From NCBI GenBank assembly GCA_938010795.1, contig CALLVB010000079.1:1-28775 (forward strand): 28,775 bases of DNA, written 5' to 3'. Source of the stretch: Minisyncoccota bacterium (GTDB lineage Bacteria > Patescibacteriota > Minisyncoccia > Phycocordibacterales > GCA-2747955). The notes below the pieces were generated by a model. It was not told the DNA's origin. It saw only the letters and a program-made list of their open reading frames with translations, and did no database searches. The position numbers were made by a program, and so were the translations under genes. Positions 6,660 through 23,803 of the stretch are shown here, piece after piece (positions within the stretch are counted from its first letter, which is position 1; each line of letters begins with the position of its first letter).

Positions 6660-7337
6660 ATGAGAATATACCCATCTGTTTTAGAGCAAACGCGTACTGC
6701 CATTGAAGACAAGATTTCCAGAGTACCTACGCAAATTAAAGAAGTGCAGATAGACATTTGTGATGGAGTGTTTGTTCCATCAAAAACGTACGGTTCATCT
6801 GGTACATTACGCTCACTTAAGTCTATAAATAGAATGACCAAAGGTAGAGAGCTGGAGTTAGACCTTATGGTGGATCTACAGAAAGCTGGGCGACGAAAAC
6901 GATTTCTCTCACACATCAAAGCCATTCATCCAGAGAGAATTATTATTCACTTTGGAACAACTGATAATTGGGGGTCTGTATTCACCCGGCTTACTCGCAG
7001 AGGGAAGATTGAGATGGAGGTAGGTCTGGGAATTCACCTATCACATACAAATCAAGATCTGTATGATTTGTTAGATAACTATCCATTTTCATTCATTCAA
7101 ATAATGGGGATCGAAAACGTTGGGTACTCAGGACAGGAATTTTCAAAAAAGACATACACCAAGATAAAAACATTTAGAAAACGATATCCAAACATACCAA
7201 TCTCTATTGACGGAGGAGTTAAAGTTGCAAATGCCGAAAAACTTAAGAACGCAGGCGCTACTAGAATCTGTCCTAATTCTGGTTTATTTAAGACTGTAGA
7301 TATTAAAAAAACCTACAAAGAATTTACAGAAATTTAA
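6660..7337 (+). CDS. rpe: Ribulose-phosphate 3-epimerase family protein (divergent metal ligands)
   Basis: QIDICDGVFVP, LDLMV, GYSGQEF, ISIDGGV; 225 aa; transketolase genes nearby. Confidence 0.85.
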   Translation: MRIYPSVLEQTRTAIEDKISRVPTQIKEVQIDICDGVFVPSKTYGSSGTLRSLKSINRMTKGRELELDLMVDLQKAGRRKRFLSHIKAIHPERIIIHFGTTDNWGSVFTRLTRRGKIEMEVGLGIHLSHTNQDLYDLLDNYPFSFIQIMGIENVGYSGQEFSKKTYTKIKTFRKRYPNIPISIDGGVKVANAEKLKNAGATRICPNSGLFKTVDIKKTYKEFTEI

Positions 7338-7395
7338 TATACAAATTTATAGACATACTCGTAGGAACGTCATGACACATAAGTCAGGTCTTGGT

Positions 7396-7429
7396 AATAA
7401 AAAACTGGCACATTCGAGATGCGCCAGTT
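7396..7429 (-). terminator. Intrinsic terminator of the 7449-7601 small ORF
   Basis: AACTGGC-A-CAT-tcgag-ATG-C-GCCAGTT hairpin; T-run follows on the minus strand. Confidence 0.65.
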
Positions 7430-7448
7430 GGTTGAGAACTATATGAGA

Positions 7449-7601
7449 CTATTCCTCATCTTTTTTTGTTGGGATTACTGGTGCTCGTTTTGCTCTTTGT
7501 ATTTCAGGTTGAATTTTAATCCATTCATGTATCAGGTGATGAATACCACTCAATACAATCAAACCTCCAATTACACAGATTATTATAGTGCCTTGTTCCA
7601 C
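7449..7601 (-). CDS. Unannotated 50-aa single-pass membrane microprotein
   Basis: SD AAGGAGG (7611-7617), 9 nt, GTG; MEQGTIIICVIGGLIVLSGIHHLIHEWIKIQPEIQRAKRAPVIPTKKDEE; own terminator; not in the ORF track. Confidence 0.7.
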   Translation of the reverse strand: MEQGTIIICVIGGLIVLSGIHHLIHEWIKIQPEIQRAKRAPVIPTKKDEE

Positions 7602-7686
7602 GATTAGCTTCCTCCTTAGTGATTGTAATCAGAGATAACTATCGCACACATATATAACTTTGACAAGCAATCTATTAAAAAAACGA

Positions 7687-7715
7687 TTGACAATTACTCT
7701 CATAGAATGTATTGT
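7687..7715 (+). promoter_or_regulatory. Sigma70-type promoter of the parB-like/ctrA-like operon
   Basis: TTGACA (7687-7692), 17 nt, TATTGT (7710-7715); SD AAGGAG at 7752-7757. Confidence 0.55.
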
Positions 7716-7765
7716 TATCTTTGCTGTACATTAACAAATCAAATTTTAAACAAGGAGTGAATATC

Positions 7766-8692
7766 ATGCCCAGCAACGCAACAGGGACACCGCTCCCCAT
7801 TAAATTGTCTAACTTACGTAAGTTTGAAGGACAACCTCGTCGACACTTTAGCGCGACAAGCATTGCTTCTCTCGCTGCATCAATTAAAGAAGAAGGACAA
7901 GAGACACCAGTGAGTGTTGTTATGTCTAAAACAGAACCGGGCACTTTTGTGCTCATTGATGGTGAAAGACGGATGAGGGCTTTTCAGCTCATTGCTGAAG
8001 ATACAAATACAGATCCAATAATATTGGCATTTGTTGACGTCGTCAAGGATCTTGAAGACCACTTCAGGAAATCAACGATTGCAAATTTGCACAGAGAAGA
8101 TATGCCTCCTCTTGATACTGGTGCCGCTTTGGCCCGTCTCAAGAAGACTAAGACTCTCGAGCAACTTGCCGACATGACAGGTAAATCTGTAACCTACGTT
8201 AAGAACTACATCTCTCTTGAAGCCCTCCCTGAGGAAGTTAAAGATATGATGAGCCCTGACCGTTCAAAAGAAAATCGTTTAAATGTTTCTCAGGCTATTG
8301 AAATCGCGCGCGTGCCCAATAAGGTATTGCAGATAGATTTAGCAAAAGAGTCTCTCGAAAGAGGGCTTGGTATGATGGAAACACGTAATCTTGCCGTCTT
8401 CAAATCGAGCAGTCGTGGCTATGTCCTTAAGGGGATTAAGCAACGGAATACTCGTGATGATTATCGTGTGATTGCTGGTTTGCCAGGACGCATTGAAAAA
8501 ACGCTGAGACGCGTTGATGAGATGTATATCGATGATATTTTCTTTGATCGAGATGATGAAGTGGGTGATCGAGCCAAAATGGCAAAACGTTATGGCTCAA
8601 TGATTGAACACCTTCAAAAAATCAAAGATAAAATCGAGACTCCTCGAGAGACTGCCGGAGACAGACCGAATCTGTCGATTGTATCTAATTAG
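7766..8692 (+). CDS. ParB/RepB/Spo0J family protein (orphan, no parA in the window)
   Basis: GQPRRHF, SIKEEGQETPV, IDGERRMRA (GxxRxxA), ANLHREDMPPLD, HTH TLEQLADMTGKSVTYV; start moved to ATG 7766 behind SD AAGGAG. Confidence 0.9.
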   Translation: MPSNATGTPLPIKLSNLRKFEGQPRRHFSATSIASLAASIKEEGQETPVSVVMSKTEPGTFVLIDGERRMRAFQLIAEDTNTDPIILAFVDVVKDLEDHFRKSTIANLHREDMPPLDTGAALARLKKTKTLEQLADMTGKSVTYVKNYISLEALPEEVKDMMSPDRSKENRLNVSQAIEIARVPNKVLQIDLAKESLERGLGMMETRNLAVFKSSSRGYVLKGIKQRNTRDDYRVIAGLPGRIEKTLRRVDEMYIDDIFFDRDDEVGDRAKMAKRYGSMIEHLQKIKDKIETPRETAGDRPNLSIVSN

Positions 8693-8704
8693 ATTGGAGG
8701 ACGT

Positions 8705-9427
8705 ATGCTCGTCTTACACCACGGTCTGGATAAGACCACCAAAGCATTTCTTGAATCTTTTGGAATGCAATTAATGCTCATCGAAGAAATTGAATCACTT
8801 GATGATGTTTCCGAATGGGTTAAGGCAACAACAGGTCCCGATGTGGTTCTGTTGGATATTGATGATCAACGTATAGGTATCTATGCACCGAGATTCCTTC
8901 GTTCTGAAGGGGTTAGTGTAAAAGTTGTTGGTTATACCAAGAACCCGGATTACCTCTCTGCATGGTCAGAAAGTCGCGCTCTATTTCTTGAGAACGGGGG
9001 AGACGATTTTCTTCGTGCCCCCTTAAATCCTCGTGAATTATCAGCAACAATTTCTGCTGTTTCTCGGCGTTCAACCGGACGTATGCTTGACGTGTTAAAA
9101 CACGTGGTGCATACAAATGGTCAAGATTCTATTCTCAAGATTCATCTTGGGATTAATCGCGTCACGGTCAATGATGCGCCAGTCGCTATGACAAACAAAG
9201 AGTTTGCCATGCTGCGCATGCTTGCTGAGCGTTCAGGAACTGTTGTTACTAAAGAACAGTTTCTCAACGGCATGTATGATGCTTTGGATGAAGAACCAGA
9301 GATTAAGATCCTAGATGTTTTCGTGTGTAAACTGAGAAAGAAACTCGGTCCAGCAGGTGCAGCTATAGAGACTGTATGGGGTAGAGGATATATGCTCACT
9401 AGTAAGAGCATTAAGTCTGCTGCATAA
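8705..9427 (+). CDS. ctrA: CtrA-like OmpR-family response regulator with degenerate receiver domain
   Basis: C-terminal [42 protein letters not shown] matches recalled alphaproteobacterial CtrA ([41 protein letters not shown]); VSRRSTG linker; ends in AA; SD GGAGG 8696-8700. Confidence 0.85.
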   Translation: [240 protein letters not shown]

Positions 9428-9449
9428 AAGATTAAAATTGATTTGTAGG

Positions 9450-9471
9450 AGCCCCTTTTGTAGGGGCTTTT
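9450..9471 (+). terminator. Intrinsic terminator after the ctrA-like gene
   Basis: AGCCCCT-TTTGT-AGGGGCT followed by TTT. Confidence 0.75.
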
Positions 9472-9497
9472 ACTTATCTATATAATTATTGTATAGT
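9469..9497 (+). promoter_or_regulatory. Sigma70-type promoter of the sciP-like gene
   Basis: TTTACT (9469-9474), 17 nt, TATAGT (9492-9497); SD GGAG at 9513-9516. Confidence 0.55.
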
Positions 9498-9524
9498 ATA
9501 AACAGTACATTTGGAGATTTTATT

Positions 9525-9779
9525 ATGGAACGTGCATTTTTTTATGACCTGCATGGTAATGTCATCGTGTCTGAGAATGATCTGCCTGCTGTTGATTGTC
9601 GTTGGACAGAGAACCGTAAGTTCATAGTCATTAAGGGAGTCGCTATAGGTATCTTTTCTCGTGAGTTGGTGCTTGAGCGTTATGGTATGACTGAGACCGA
9701 ATTAGATTCATGGACAGACAGGATGGACCGCCTTGGTCAAGATGGTTTAAAAACTACTCGAATTCGATCAATAAGATGA
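9525..9779 (+). CDS. sciP: SciP-like (DUF1153) small CtrA-inhibitory protein homolog, 84 aa
   Basis: DLPAVDCRWTENRK..VI..V..GI.S.E....RYGMTETELDSW.....RLGQDGLKTTRI follows the recalled DUF1153/SciP pattern DLPP..T.RW...RKA.VV..V.GGLLS..EA..RY.L..EE...W......G..GLR.TRI; start moved to ATG 9525. Confidence 0.85.
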   Translation: MERAFFYDLHGNVIVSENDLPAVDCRWTENRKFIVIKGVAIGIFSRELVLERYGMTETELDSWTDRMDRLGQDGLKTTRIRSIR

Positions 9780-9808
9780 AAGATTCGCCATAACTGGCGG
9801 ATCTTTTT
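9780..9808 (+). terminator. Intrinsic terminator after the sciP-like gene
   Basis: AAGATTCGCCA-TAAC-TGGCGGATCTT followed by TTT. Confidence 0.8.
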
Positions 9809-9918
9809 AGTTATGTGGCTCAGTATTTATTTTTTAAATTTTAAGCGTGTCTATGTGAACATAGATATATACAAAACAACTTTAATCTACGTCGTCCATG
9901 CTTTATACTACGTAGTAT

Positions 9919-10755
9919 ATGAGTATTACCCCAGAACAAGTTACAGAACTCGAGAAGAAAGCTAATGATATTAGGATTGATATTGTAAAGTCTCTTGCTA
10001 AGGCAGGAACAGGGCATACAGCAGGACCCCTAGATATGGCTGACGTATTCACTACACTCTACTTTTATTCTATGCGACATAATCCCAAGAAACCAGATTG
10101 GGAGGGAAGAGACCGTCTCGTGCTTTCTAATGGACACATTTGTCCAGTACTGTATGTCACAATGGCGCACGCAGGATACTTTGCTGCGTCACAACTAGAC
10201 ACCCTTAGGGTATTTGGATCGTCACTTCAGGGTCATCCACATAGGGAGTATCTTCCAGGAATTGAGACATCATCAGGACCGCTGGGATCAGGACTTTCAC
10301 AGGCTGTCGGAATGGCACTGGCAGACAGGATCGATAATGGTAAGACATCTGGAAAGTTTTTTTACTGTCTCATGGGAGATGGAGAGACTAATGAAGGACA
10401 AATTTGGGAAGCTGCAATGATGGCGGGTAAAGAACAACTCGGAAATCTTATTTGTGTAGTAGACAGAAACAACATTCAAATTGATGGATTTACAGAAGAC
10501 ATTATGCCACTAGAGCCATACGCGGATAAATGGGAGGCTTTTGGATTTCACGTAATCTCAATTGATGGACATAATATCGAAGAGATCGCAGATGCTATCG
10601 ATCAAGGTAAGGCAGTGTTTGAAAAACCAACGATGATTATCGCTAGAACCATTTCATCAAAAGGAGTACCAGCATGGGAACGAGATTTCCACTGGCACGG
10701 AAAACCACCCAAGGATGACGAACTACAAGTCGCACTTGATGCACTTAAAAAATAA
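9919..10755 (+). CDS. tkt: Transketolase, N-terminal (TPP-binding) subunit
   Basis: GTGHTAG, RDRLVLSNGH, LQGHP, SSGPLGSGLS, GDGETNEG..WEA...NN TPP motif, HWHG. Confidence 0.95.
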   Translation: MSITPEQVTELEKKANDIRIDIVKSLAKAGTGHTAGPLDMADVFTTLYFYSMRHNPKKPDWEGRDRLVLSNGHICPVLYVTMAHAGYFAASQLDTLRVFGSSLQGHPHREYLPGIETSSGPLGSGLSQAVGMALADRIDNGKTSGKFFYCLMGDGETNEGQIWEAAMMAGKEQLGNLICVVDRNNIQIDGFTEDIMPLEPYADKWEAFGFHVISIDGHNIEEIADAIDQGKAVFEKPTMIIARTISSKGVPAWERDFHWHGKPPKDDELQVALDALKK

Positions 10756-10759
10756 GCAT

Positions 10760-10788
10760 AAAAAAGACGGACCTCAATCGGTCCATCT
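10760..10788 (-). terminator. Intrinsic terminator of the 10815-10970 small ORF
   Basis: Minus strand AGATGGACC-gattga-GGTCCGTCT followed by a T-run. Confidence 0.65.
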
Positions 10789-10814
10789 GTAAGGAATAGA
10801 ATATCTATTCCTAG

Positions 10815-10970
10815 TTATTGCTGTAATTCATTGCACGGTCCAAGGATCGTATCTTCAGGTTCAGGTATTTTCACTCCTTCCATCGATACTCCTGAGGGCG
10901 CATGCAGAGCAGGTTTATCACCCGTTAATTCTTTATTTGTAGCAGGGCTAACATCTTTTGCTTTTCCCAT
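10815..10970 (-). CDS. Unannotated 51-aa hydrophilic microprotein
   Basis: MGKAKDVSPATNKELTGDKPALHAPSGVSMEGVKIPEPEDTILGPCNELQQ; SD GGAG (10977-10980); promoter and terminator flank it; not in the ORF track. Confidence 0.65.
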   Translation of the reverse strand: MGKAKDVSPATNKELTGDKPALHAPSGVSMEGVKIPEPEDTILGPCNELQQ

Positions 10971-10999
10971 AAGGCACTCCATTGGTTGATTGGGCTTTT

Positions 11000-11028
11000 A
11001 TAATACCGATATACAGTTTATCAGTCAA
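11000..11028 (-). promoter_or_regulatory. Sigma70-type promoter of the 10815-10970 ORF
   Basis: Minus strand TTGACT (11028-11023), 17 nt, TATTAT (11005-11000). Confidence 0.65.
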
Positions 11029-11029
11029 G

Positions 11030-11614
11030 TTATTTTCTTAGAATCCCAGCTGAGAGTACAAAAAGAGGAATAGATTCAGTGTCTTCTTTTTTTAATTTCT
11101 TAATTTTTCTCATTTCCACAAGCACTAACTCACCACTAAAGTTAATGGGATAGGGTGCATACACCCAAATAGATCCCTCAATAGGGCTCGCCTCAGTCTC
11201 ATGATGACCAGGGTCTTCTTCTCCGTTCAAGATCTCGGTTCCTTCATCTGTAATAAAGCCAAGTTTATAAATTCCATCATCAACCTTATATAAAACAGGA
11301 TTATGGAACGCTTTGTGTACCTGGTCAGAGAGCACATCAAAACTTGTGATGAGTTTTGCTATATACCCAAGGAATGTCTTCTTTTCAGCATATGTGTGGA
11401 GGCGTTTTTTGAGTCGTTTACGTAAGAATTTTCGTACTCCATATCCAAGAATAAAGATAAGTACGCAGGCAATAGGAAACGCTATAAGTAAGGGGAGTTC
11501 AATAAAGTTTGTTACAAACCATGAGATACCTTTGATTAACTGGATAACAATAAAAACAGGAATCAAGAAAAGTAATCCACTGACAAAGTAACTGATAATT
11601 TTTTTTGTATTCAT
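11030..11614 (-). CDS. DUF502-family membrane protein
   Basis: YFVSGLLFLIP, ILG, Y..GFIT, VYAPYPINFSG...V, SAG; real start is ATG at 11614 (TGGTATACT 6 nt upstream). The track's upstream extension overlaps tkt antisense. Confidence 0.8.
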   Translation of the reverse strand: MNTKKIISYFVSGLLFLIPVFIVIQLIKGISWFVTNFIELPLLIAFPIACVLIFILGYGVRKFLRKRLKKRLHTYAEKKTFLGYIAKLITSFDVLSDQVHKAFHNPVLYKVDDGIYKLGFITDEGTEILNGEEDPGHHETEASPIEGSIWVYAPYPINFSGELVLVEMRKIKKLKKEDTESIPLFVLSAGILRK

Positions 11615-11675
11615 GTGTATAGTATACCAATTCAGGATCCGGCTCTGTGATAAAATTGATAAGAATAAATTACAT

Positions 11676-12665
11676 ATGTTAAATCCAAAACTAAAACTAA
11701 ATGAAAAGCTATTTTCAGAAGATTGTGAAAAAAAACCAACACGAAATGGATTCGGAGAAGGTTTGGTCAAAGCAGGAAAAAAAAATAAACAAATCGTTGC
11801 CCTGTGTTGCGACTTAACAGAATCAGTGAGGATGCACTTTTTCAAAGAGGCGTACCCAGAAAGATTTATTGAAGTTGGTGTAGCAGAACAAAACTTAGCA
11901 TCAGTTGCCTCTGGAATGGCAGCAATGGGTAAGATACCTTTCGCAGCTTCATACGCGATGTTTAATCCAGGAAGAAATTGGGAGCAAATTAGAACAACTG
12001 TTGCGTACAACAACGTACCAGTAAAGATAGTCGGAGGACATGCAGGTGTTTCGGTTGCGCAAGATGGAGGTACTCACCAAGCAATTGAGGACATAGCTAT
12101 TACACGTGTTATTCCACGCATGGAGGTGATTGTGCCAGTTGATGCACATCAAGCTGACCTGGCTACTCAGGCAATTGCTCAAACAGACGCACCAACATAT
12201 ATCCGCTTAGAAAAACAAAAAACACGAGTAATTACTACACCAAAAACTCCATTTGAAATTGGTAGAGCACAAGTTTTGTGGGAACCAGAAACCATGTCTG
12301 CACGTGTAGGAATTATTTCTTGTGGATCTGTGACCGCAACAGTACTTGATGTAGCTCACTATTTTGAAGAAAAGGGAATTGGAGTAAAAGTTTTGAATAT
12401 GCACACTATTAAGCCAATGGATAAGGAGGCGGTGATTGCACTTGCAAAAGAGACGGAACGTATTGTGACAGTTGAAGAACACCAGAGAGCAGGAGGTCTG
12501 GGATCTGCCGTGGCTGAAGTGCTTGTTGAAAATCACCCAGTGCCAATGCGAATGTGTGGAGTAGACGATGTATTTGGAGAGTCAGGAACAGCAGATGAAC
12601 TACTTGCTAAACACGGACTAGATTTTAATGGAATCAAAGAGGTGGTTGAAGATATAATGAGATAG
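11676..12665 (+). CDS. tkt: Transketolase, C-terminal (pyrimidine-binding) subunit
   Basis: TRNGFGEGL, CDLTES, ERFIEVGVAEQN, DGGTHQAIED, YIRL, TIKP.D, TVEEH..AGGLGSAVAE; likely start MLNPKL at 11676. Confidence 0.95.
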   Translation: MLNPKLKLNEKLFSEDCEKKPTRNGFGEGLVKAGKKNKQIVALCCDLTESVRMHFFKEAYPERFIEVGVAEQNLASVASGMAAMGKIPFAASYAMFNPGRNWEQIRTTVAYNNVPVKIVGGHAGVSVAQDGGTHQAIEDIAITRVIPRMEVIVPVDAHQADLATQAIAQTDAPTYIRLEKQKTRVITTPKTPFEIGRAQVLWEPETMSARVGIISCGSVTATVLDVAHYFEEKGIGVKVLNMHTIKPMDKEAVIALAKETERIVTVEEHQRAGGLGSAVAEVLVENHPVPMRMCGVDDVFGESGTADELLAKHGLDFNGIKEVVEDIMR

Positions 12666-23775: not shown

Positions 23776-23803
23776 AAAACAAAAGGCGTACGCCTTTTGT
23801 TTT
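23776..23803. repeat. Perfect 28-bp palindrome, probably acting as terminator of the 23828-24493 gene
   Basis: AAAACAAAAGGCGTACGCCTTTTGTTTT is its own reverse complement. Confidence 0.75.

Follow-up and report, generated by a model that had tools for sequence, protein, structure and literature searches.

A SciP-family gene beside a pseudo-receiver CtrA paralogue in a rare gene cassette of CPR bacteria

Introduction

CtrA and SciP are regarded as cell-cycle and motility regulators of the Alphaproteobacteria, and the question raised here is what a SciP-like gene does in a bacterium of the candidate phyla radiation (CPR). The gene, called sciP below, lies at positions 9525 to 9779 (plus strand) of a 28,775-nucleotide (nt) stretch of DNA from a Minisyncoccota bacterium (contig CALLVB010000079.1 of assembly GCA_938010795.1), referred to as the window. 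The window is the entire contig C79 of genome G000, which amounts to 867 kb in 110 contigs and is 89% complete. A preliminary description of the locus had depicted sciP as an independent transcription unit that follows ctrA and has no canonical CtrA box upstream; from this it derived a donor circuit whose feedback was absent or rewired, with activator and inhibitor free to be expressed at different times, as would suit either a two-phase switch or targets located in another cell.

In Caulobacter, SciP binds CtrA and blocks the recruitment of RNA polymerase, and sciP itself is activated by CtrA (PMC4083442). The site TTAA-N7-TTAA is conserved and functional as a CtrA target across the Alphaproteobacteria (PMC9437464). 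Full-text searches of a paper library brought up no work on either regulator in CPR bacteria, with two passing co-mentions at most.

We propose, with a probability of about 0.6, that the window carries a SciP gene within a rare cassette that also encodes a small membrane protein, a ParB-like protein and a pseudo-receiver CtrA paralogue (psiCtrA), that sciP is expressed as a transcript of its own, and that its product would act as a partner or co-repressor of a CtrA-type protein at non-canonical sites.

A SciP-family protein in a CPR genome

The open reading frame (ORF) extends from the ATG at 9525 to the stop at 9779 and encodes 84 amino acids (aa) carrying the motifs DLP, RWTENRK, RY, W and GLKTTRI, which map to conserved columns in an alignment of 18 relatives. 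The initial identification of an 84-aa SciP/DUF1153 protein with these motifs is hence confirmed, and a hidden Markov model search gives the same answer: Pfam PF06627 (DUF1153) matches residues 14-84 with 65.7 bits against a cut-off of 23.5, and a DUF1153 search of the whole of G000 returns the sciP product with 64.4 bits. A profile built from 18 CPR-type homologues matches the solved DUF1153 structures 2JRT (95.4 bits) and 2OA4 (76.5 bits), both of them alphaproteobacterial proteins without a depositor-assigned function; the profile aligns over 75 residues, and the same fold is expected. A word-based homologue search recovers only the window SciP itself, the relatives requiring an exhaustive HMMER search, which yields 433 DUF1153-type proteins at E<=1e-3. 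The match of the window protein to HTH_28 is weak (14.2 bits), and no signal peptide-like N-terminus is present in the alignment of SciP relatives. On sequence criteria, the product of 9525-9779 is a genuine SciP-family (DUF1153) helix-turn-helix protein.

The protein shares with Caulobacter crescentus SciP the Pfam family, the DLP/RW...RK/RY/W/GL.T core and a similar size. Both coexist with CtrA-family regulators in the same genome, in the window also at the same locus. In contrast to the Caulobacter protein, which is the product of a core cell-cycle gene, the window SciP occurs outside the Alphaproteobacteria, in a rare and apparently mobile cassette, with psiCtrA and ParB as neighbours.

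The DNA itself belongs to the CPR genome. Proteins of the window, including those of rpe and of the split transketolase gene, are 91-93% identical to their counterparts in two genomes of the same genus (G001 and G002), and therefore C79 is CPR/Patescibacteria DNA and not a mis-binned alphaproteobacterial contig. GC content is about 38% across the window. Among sequencing runs, the stretch occurs only in DNA contigs of one marine metagenome study, with no RNA run among them.

The cassette and its distribution

Comparison with the same genus delimits a cassette of 2.56 kb (7338-9898), inserted between rpe (6660-7337) and the N-terminal half of the transketolase gene (9919-10755). From its left end, the cassette begins with a gene for a predicted small membrane protein of 50 aa (7449-7601, minus strand), which has a strong Shine-Dalgarno (SD) sequence and its own hairpin terminator of -15.7 kcal/mol. 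No Pfam family matches this protein, and a 49-aa counterpart is found at the equal position and strand in the closest cassette, L005 (3766-3915, minus strand); in both the window and L005 the gene is divergent from parB. A promoter-like site, TTGACA-17-TATTGT, precedes parB (7687-7715, plus strand; 10/12 matches, a pattern match only). The orphan ParB-like gene (7766-8692, plus strand) is recognized by ParB_N (37.6 bits), HTH_ParB (36.6 bits) and TIGR00180 (87 bits). The gene of psiCtrA starts 12 nt past parB (8705-9427, plus strand; Trans_reg_C, 64.7 bits), and sciP follows on the same strand after a gap of 97 nt.

The arrangement was followed in 19 distinct loci, the window included, which were gathered by looking up genomic context and by scanning a single genome for each species, and which are labelled Paceibacterota, Kaiserbacteria, Minisyncoccia, Parcubacteria and, for some, 'Saccharibacteria'. 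In 18 of the 19, parB is directly upstream of the psiCtrA gene. A SciP-like gene lies alongside in 13 loci and is convergent with ctrA in 11 of these, being co-directional only in the window and in L022. Separate transcription of sciP is thus the rule in the family and not a peculiarity of the window. Most loci have a terminator at the end of parB and, ahead of ctrA, a separate conserved promoter, TTGACA-17-TTTACT; in the window, L005, L012 and L022 the two genes are joined as one operon with a gap of 9-18 nt. Spacers containing both the terminator and TTGACA-17-TTTACT were seen in L007, L009, L013, L015, L016, L019, L020, L025 and L026. The hexamer TTTACT is an unusual -10 element, with T at position 2, and it recurs upstream of sciP in several loci, at 9469-9474 in the window.

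The cassette was not found in either of the same-genus genomes. About 50 nt separate rpe from tkt in G001, and in G002 the same spot is occupied by an unrelated gene of 319 aa without Pfam family (L028:1833-2792, on contig C12). Since G002 and G000 hold different inserts there, the rpe-tkt intergenic site is an insertion hot spot. DUF1153 scores above its cut-off in none of 40 relatives. A sample of 400 further genomes of the phylum yielded no SciP, and psiCtrA was found in one of 200 others sampled from the order. Surroundings of the cassette vary between loci, and in L012 it separates the genes for ATP synthase a and c. The cassette as a whole is bordered by direct repeats of 15-21 nt in L012 (oriented 2027/4343), L018 (1666/3878) and L024 (1835/4167). 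In L007, L018 and L024 it is immediately next to tRNA genes. No integrase or recombinase gene was found near the window cassette; in a phage collection SciP has no match and psiCtrA matches generic OmpR-type proteins only. From its distribution and borders, the cassette is rare and patchy among Paceibacteria-type CPR bacteria, and looks mobile.

Two CtrA-type regulators in one genome

The gene next to sciP, taken for ctrA in the preliminary description, encodes a protein with a CtrA-type DNA-binding domain and without a phospho-accepting receiver. Its Response_reg score is 18.8 bits, under the cut-off of 30.2. The CtrA model is its best family, with 127 bits over the DNA-binding domain only, and other OmpR families reach at most 72 bits. 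Across the psiCtrA clade the acidic pair and the lysine of the KP motif are replaced, an aspartate still standing at the acceptor position, and in the alignment the recognition helix and the wing are near-identical to those of true CtrA. Some 40 relatives of psiCtrA, 36-73% identical and with a Pfam match to the DNA-binding domain only, include one labelled Candidatus Paceibacterota; the next relatives are true CtrA proteins labelled Rickettsiales (NCBI), about 52% identical over the DNA-binding domain only. In a phylogenetic tree psiCtrA is monophyletic (100/100), on a long stem, and falls within the CtrA group (100/100 versus generic OmpR regulators). The tree does not settle how psiCtrA branches relative to other CtrA proteins and to three full-length CtrA-type proteins of CPR bacteria, and hence no donor can be named; the single alphaproteobacterial donor that had been assumed is not shown.

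Like CtrA, psiCtrA has a nearly identical DNA-binding domain and an ending of the Ala-Ala type, but it is without the acidic pocket and the receiver lysine of CtrA, and G000 has neither a HisKA-type kinase, as searched in this 89%-complete genome, nor an enrichment of canonical boxes. Most C-termini of the psiCtrA group are AA, VA or similar, resembling the ClpXP degron of CtrA; ClpP is encoded in G000, on contig C60. A further parallel is with atypical OmpR regulators that act independently of phosphorylation, in which, as in psiCtrA, the position of the receiver fold is kept, the residues of the phospho-chemistry are lost and the DNA-binding domain is intact. In contrast to those, psiCtrA belongs specifically to the CtrA clade (100/100) and is fixed beside a ParB gene.

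A canonical CtrA-type regulator of 229 aa is encoded elsewhere in G000, at 7464-8150 of contig C68 (L004:1366-2055). It matches NF045991 end to end with 310.6 bits, the next best family giving 151 bits, and ends in LAA. The gene sits after ddl, up to which C68 is syntenic with the same-genus genomes and beyond which it diverges, and it was not found in G001 or G002. Its terminator resembles the one after psiCtrA. SciP therefore co-occurs in G000 with CtrA-family regulators, the adjacent psiCtrA and the C68 protein, which is CtrA-like over its full length. The pair of adjacent activator and inhibitor originally described is not established, the neighbour being a pseudo-receiver paralogue and the canonical CtrA-type gene lying on C68.

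Two relatives bring a full-length CtrA-type gene, ctrA2, next to sciP. In L026 (3800-4845) ctrA2 (290.8 bits) overlaps the start of sciP by 4 nt (ATGA), so that sciP is here translationally coupled to a canonical CtrA-type gene. In L022 (894-3723) the order is sciP, ctrA2 (237.9 bits), parB and psiCtrA. No kinase gene adjoins ctrA2 in either locus. Co-folding of the psiCtrA and SciP alignments gave a score of 0.00 that, being without controls, counts neither for nor against binding. As judged from gene content and linkage, the partner of SciP may be psiCtrA, the C68 CtrA-type regulator, or both.

Canonical boxes and transcription signals

A pattern scan confirms that TTAA-N7-TTAA is missing from 7620-7765 and from 9428-9524, the regions upstream of parB and sciP that had been scanned by eye. 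The window holds one such box, at 23803, against a chance expectation of 1.4; as a CtrA site it was rejected, since it sits between a stop codon and a terminator and is probably due to chance. Over the 19 loci a single box lies upstream of any cassette gene (L021, at the SD of parB). With mismatches allowed, the regions ahead of ctrA, parB and sciP contain full and half sites about as often as chance predicts, and none of 11 sciP upstream regions has a site at one mismatch or less, versus 2.3 expected. The search for enriched k-mers upstream of ctrA, parB and sciP returned SD sequences, terminator stems and TTTACT only, with no shared operator.

The scarcity extends to whole genomes. In G000 the box is not enriched, and a spacing of 7 gives no peak over other spacings. 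In 13 cassette genomes (G210-G222) 63 boxes were counted against 189 for the reversed control AATT-N7-AATT, which makes the box about threefold rarer; two of the 13 have no box at all, one of them a 1.5-Mb genome with both psiCtrA and SciP. The cassette family, with canonical boxes this scarce throughout, cannot depend on TTAA-N7-TTAA. The lack of a box at sciP, in which the window differs from the CtrA-activated sciP promoter of Caulobacter (PMC4083442), is a property of the whole family; it therefore says nothing specific about lost feedback and is no evidence of the rewiring that had been concluded for this locus.

Fifteen boxes of G000 are intergenic, three of them on the suspect contig C48 (L038, 3071 nt). 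These three were discarded because they belong to a repeat and because C48 lacks long ORFs of bacterial type. The 40-nt inverted and direct repeats of C48 contain TTAA-N7-TTAA, and the contig also carries a BED/hAT-like zinc-finger fragment; by its content, C48 is probably foreign to the G000 genome. Another box precedes a type IV pilin-like gene by 87 nt (C31:6022-6528, L039; N_methyl, 35.5 bits). It recalls the control of pilA by CtrA, a hint that is compatible with chance.

The signals that would make sciP a separate unit are the following. A hairpin resembling an intrinsic terminator lies 3' of psiCtrA (9445-9473, plus strand; -23 kcal/mol, z -6.2). Its tail is overlapped by the promoter-like site TTTACT-17-TATAGT (9469-9497, plus strand; 9/12 matches, a pattern match only), which was found where it had been described. 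The SD sequence GGAG (9513-9516) is placed 8 nt ahead of the ATG, and a second hairpin terminator, flanked by an A-tract and a U-tract and possibly bidirectional, lies 3' of sciP (9778-9807, plus strand; -17.4 kcal/mol, z -6.7). Predicted signals and gene orientation thus indicate that sciP is a separate transcription unit, as in nearly all copies of the cassette. The claim of an independent unit stands with respect to its hairpins, promoter-like site and SD, but the unit is not special to the window, separate transcription of sciP being the family norm.

Candidate operators around sciP

The unit made up of sciP with its promoter and terminator is precisely enclosed by a 19-nt inverted repeat. 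The left arm of the repeat (9429-9447, plus strand) contains TTAA-N7-TTGT and is complementary at 17/19 positions to the right arm (9870-9888), which carries TTAA-N7-TTGT on the minus strand and coincides with the -35 region in the promoter of tkt. Each arm hence presents half a canonical box. The 18-nt motif, searched at 0-1 mismatch, occurs only as these two arms in the 867-kb genome. A third related copy, TTAAAATTTGATTTGT, with one extra base and a 12/13 match to the left arm, is found in the parB leader (7734-7749, minus strand), between the parB promoter and its SD; a match this good is estimated to arise by chance in the stretch with a probability of about 0.01, given the left arm. The remaining 18 loci yielded no equivalent repeat.

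Should CtrA-type proteins exert feedback on the cassette, the inverted repeats and the parB-leader copy are the best candidate operators. The earlier proposal to look for degenerate CtrA sites has consequently a divided outcome: the sites upstream are at chance level, but TTAA-N7-TTGT repeats bracket sciP, and degenerate operator sites may therefore be present.

Metagenome contigs from two runs show sciP in the window orientation only, at a depth of 3-7x at which minor variants would escape, and one 2,020-nt contig covers 8202-10221 in the window arrangement. A single weak joint, 9888->10123, with a side of 26 nt, was obtained from one low-depth run and is not interpretable.

Discussion

In the mechanism that we propose, SciP would work together with a CtrA-type DNA-binding domain, as its small partner or as a co-repressor, a role suggested by homology and by tight gene linkage, which extends to CtrA-family genes in 13 loci. 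Its expression would be driven by a separate promoter, inside a cassette whose psiCtrA would no longer need phosphorylation, and regulation in the cassette family does not proceed through canonical TTAA-N7-TTAA boxes. The TTAA-N7-TTGT repeats may serve as operators.

Several observations weigh against this proposal. The window protein reaches 66.7 bits on the NCBIfam equivalog model NF051866, 'CtrA inhibitor SciP', below the cut-off of 100; the alphaproteobacterial-type homologue L014 obtains 96.2 bits on the same model. The AT-rich stretch contains 8 promoter-like patterns versus 6.6 +/- 2.5 in shuffles, a density that makes the sciP promoter plausible only, and the psiCtrA hairpin is followed by a short U-tract (UUUUAC), which could allow read-through into sciP. 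The cassette genomes G210, G211 and G212 have parB-psiCtrA and no detectable sciP genome-wide; parB-psiCtrA is thus the core of the cassette, and sciP a frequent but dispensable accessory. No close ctrA2 was recovered from the five other cassette genomes examined, and most of the cassette genomes tested are without a canonical ctrA2. As regards the operators, the 17/19 complementarity is significant only at p ~0.015, being matched by 3 of 200 shuffled cassettes, and the motif is not conserved in L005, the closest cassette.

The alternatives bear on the origin of the genes, on their transcription and on the meaning of the repeats. According to the original interpretation, a CtrA-SciP pair came from an alphaproteobacterium and its feedback was lost or rewired, the two proteins acting in separate phases of expression or on targets in another, host cell. 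In its favour are the absence of canonical boxes upstream of sciP and parB-ctrA, the separate transcription signals at sciP and the fact that, outside the CPR, the DNA-binding domain is most closely related to CtrA proteins labelled Rickettsiales; however, the boxes are missing family-wide and genome-wide and not by a loss at this locus, the adjacent gene is a pseudo-receiver paralogue with the canonical CtrA-type gene elsewhere, the tree resolves no donor, and degenerate TTAA-N7-TTGT repeats are present. Nothing suggests secretion or action across cells, the SciP N-terminus being unlike a signal peptide, so that targets in another cell find no support of any kind. We consider an imported and rewired pair unlikely. 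A further alternative, in which the contig is mis-binned from an alphaproteobacterium or sciP is a helix-turn-helix protein of insertion sequence type (transposase OrfA-like) within terminal inverted repeats, could appeal to the faint HTH_28 match and to the repeats that flank the gene. It is largely refuted by the 91-93% identity of the flanking rpe and tkt proteins to those of CPR bacteria of the same genus, by the uniform GC content, by orthologues that accompany parB-psiCtrA in 13 loci where repeats of this kind are missing, and by the lack of phage matches. Expression of sciP mainly by read-through from the parB-psiCtrA operon would agree with a co-directional gene 97 nt downstream, with the short U-tract and with a promoter pattern that is statistically undistinguished. 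The stability of the hairpin (-23 kcal/mol), the good -10 element (TATAGT) and SD, and the opposite strand of sciP in 11 of 13 homologous loci, where a promoter of its own is required, make this a poor prospect.

The remaining alternatives concern the repeats. Feedback could have been kept through degenerate operators at 9429-9447, 9870-9888 and 7734-7749, bound by psiCtrA or CtrA2, or by ParB if the sites are parS-like, and the repeats would then couple the expression of parB-ctrA, sciP and even tkt. The genome-wide uniqueness of the 18-nt motif, the rarity of such complementarity among shuffles, the position of the arms exactly at the edges of the sciP unit, the third copy between the parB promoter and its SD, and a recognition helix nearly identical to that of CtrA all point in this direction. 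As a CtrA box, however, the site has two mismatches, no better than chance would give in regions of this kind; the repeat, moreover, found no counterpart among the 18 other loci, and L005 does not share the motif. We retain kept feedback as a tentative idea that is probably not correct. The same repeats might instead be scars or substrates of a rearrangement in which the sciP unit was inverted or separately inserted, which would explain why sciP is co-directional here and convergent in 11 loci. This agrees with the exceptional orientation of sciP in the window, with the exact enclosure of promoter, gene and terminator, and with the direct repeats and tRNA genes that flank cassettes elsewhere. 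The window orientation is nevertheless the only one in the contigs of the two metagenome runs, within their depth of 3-7x, and no recombinase gene is nearby, so that a rearrangement appears doubtful at best.

The preferred reading, a SciP gene with its own transcript and a CtrA-type partner in a rare cassette, could be extended to a self-contained, kinase-independent CtrA-type cassette that is passed horizontally between ultra-small CPR bacteria, at times with a canonical CtrA included, and that has a site grammar of its own, in which psiCtrA and SciP would modulate the canonical CtrA or act as its decoy and the repeats would link tkt to the cassette. We regard this extension as speculative and do not expect it to hold in full. 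Whatever the partner, the locus represents a conserved CPR version of the system, in which the receiver is degenerate, ParB is a constant partner and canonical CtrA boxes are missing, and it is of interest both for the evolution of CtrA and for the biology of CPR bacteria. It makes testable how a master-regulator module is re-used once transferred horizontally, whether SciP-CtrA antagonism operates without phosphorylation, and what the role of ParB is.

Other features of the window

Downstream of the cassette, the two halves of the transketolase gene are separated by about 860 nt in the window (10756-11612), as compared with about 350 nt in G001. The spacer between them is overlapped by an ORF on the minus strand (11030-12013).

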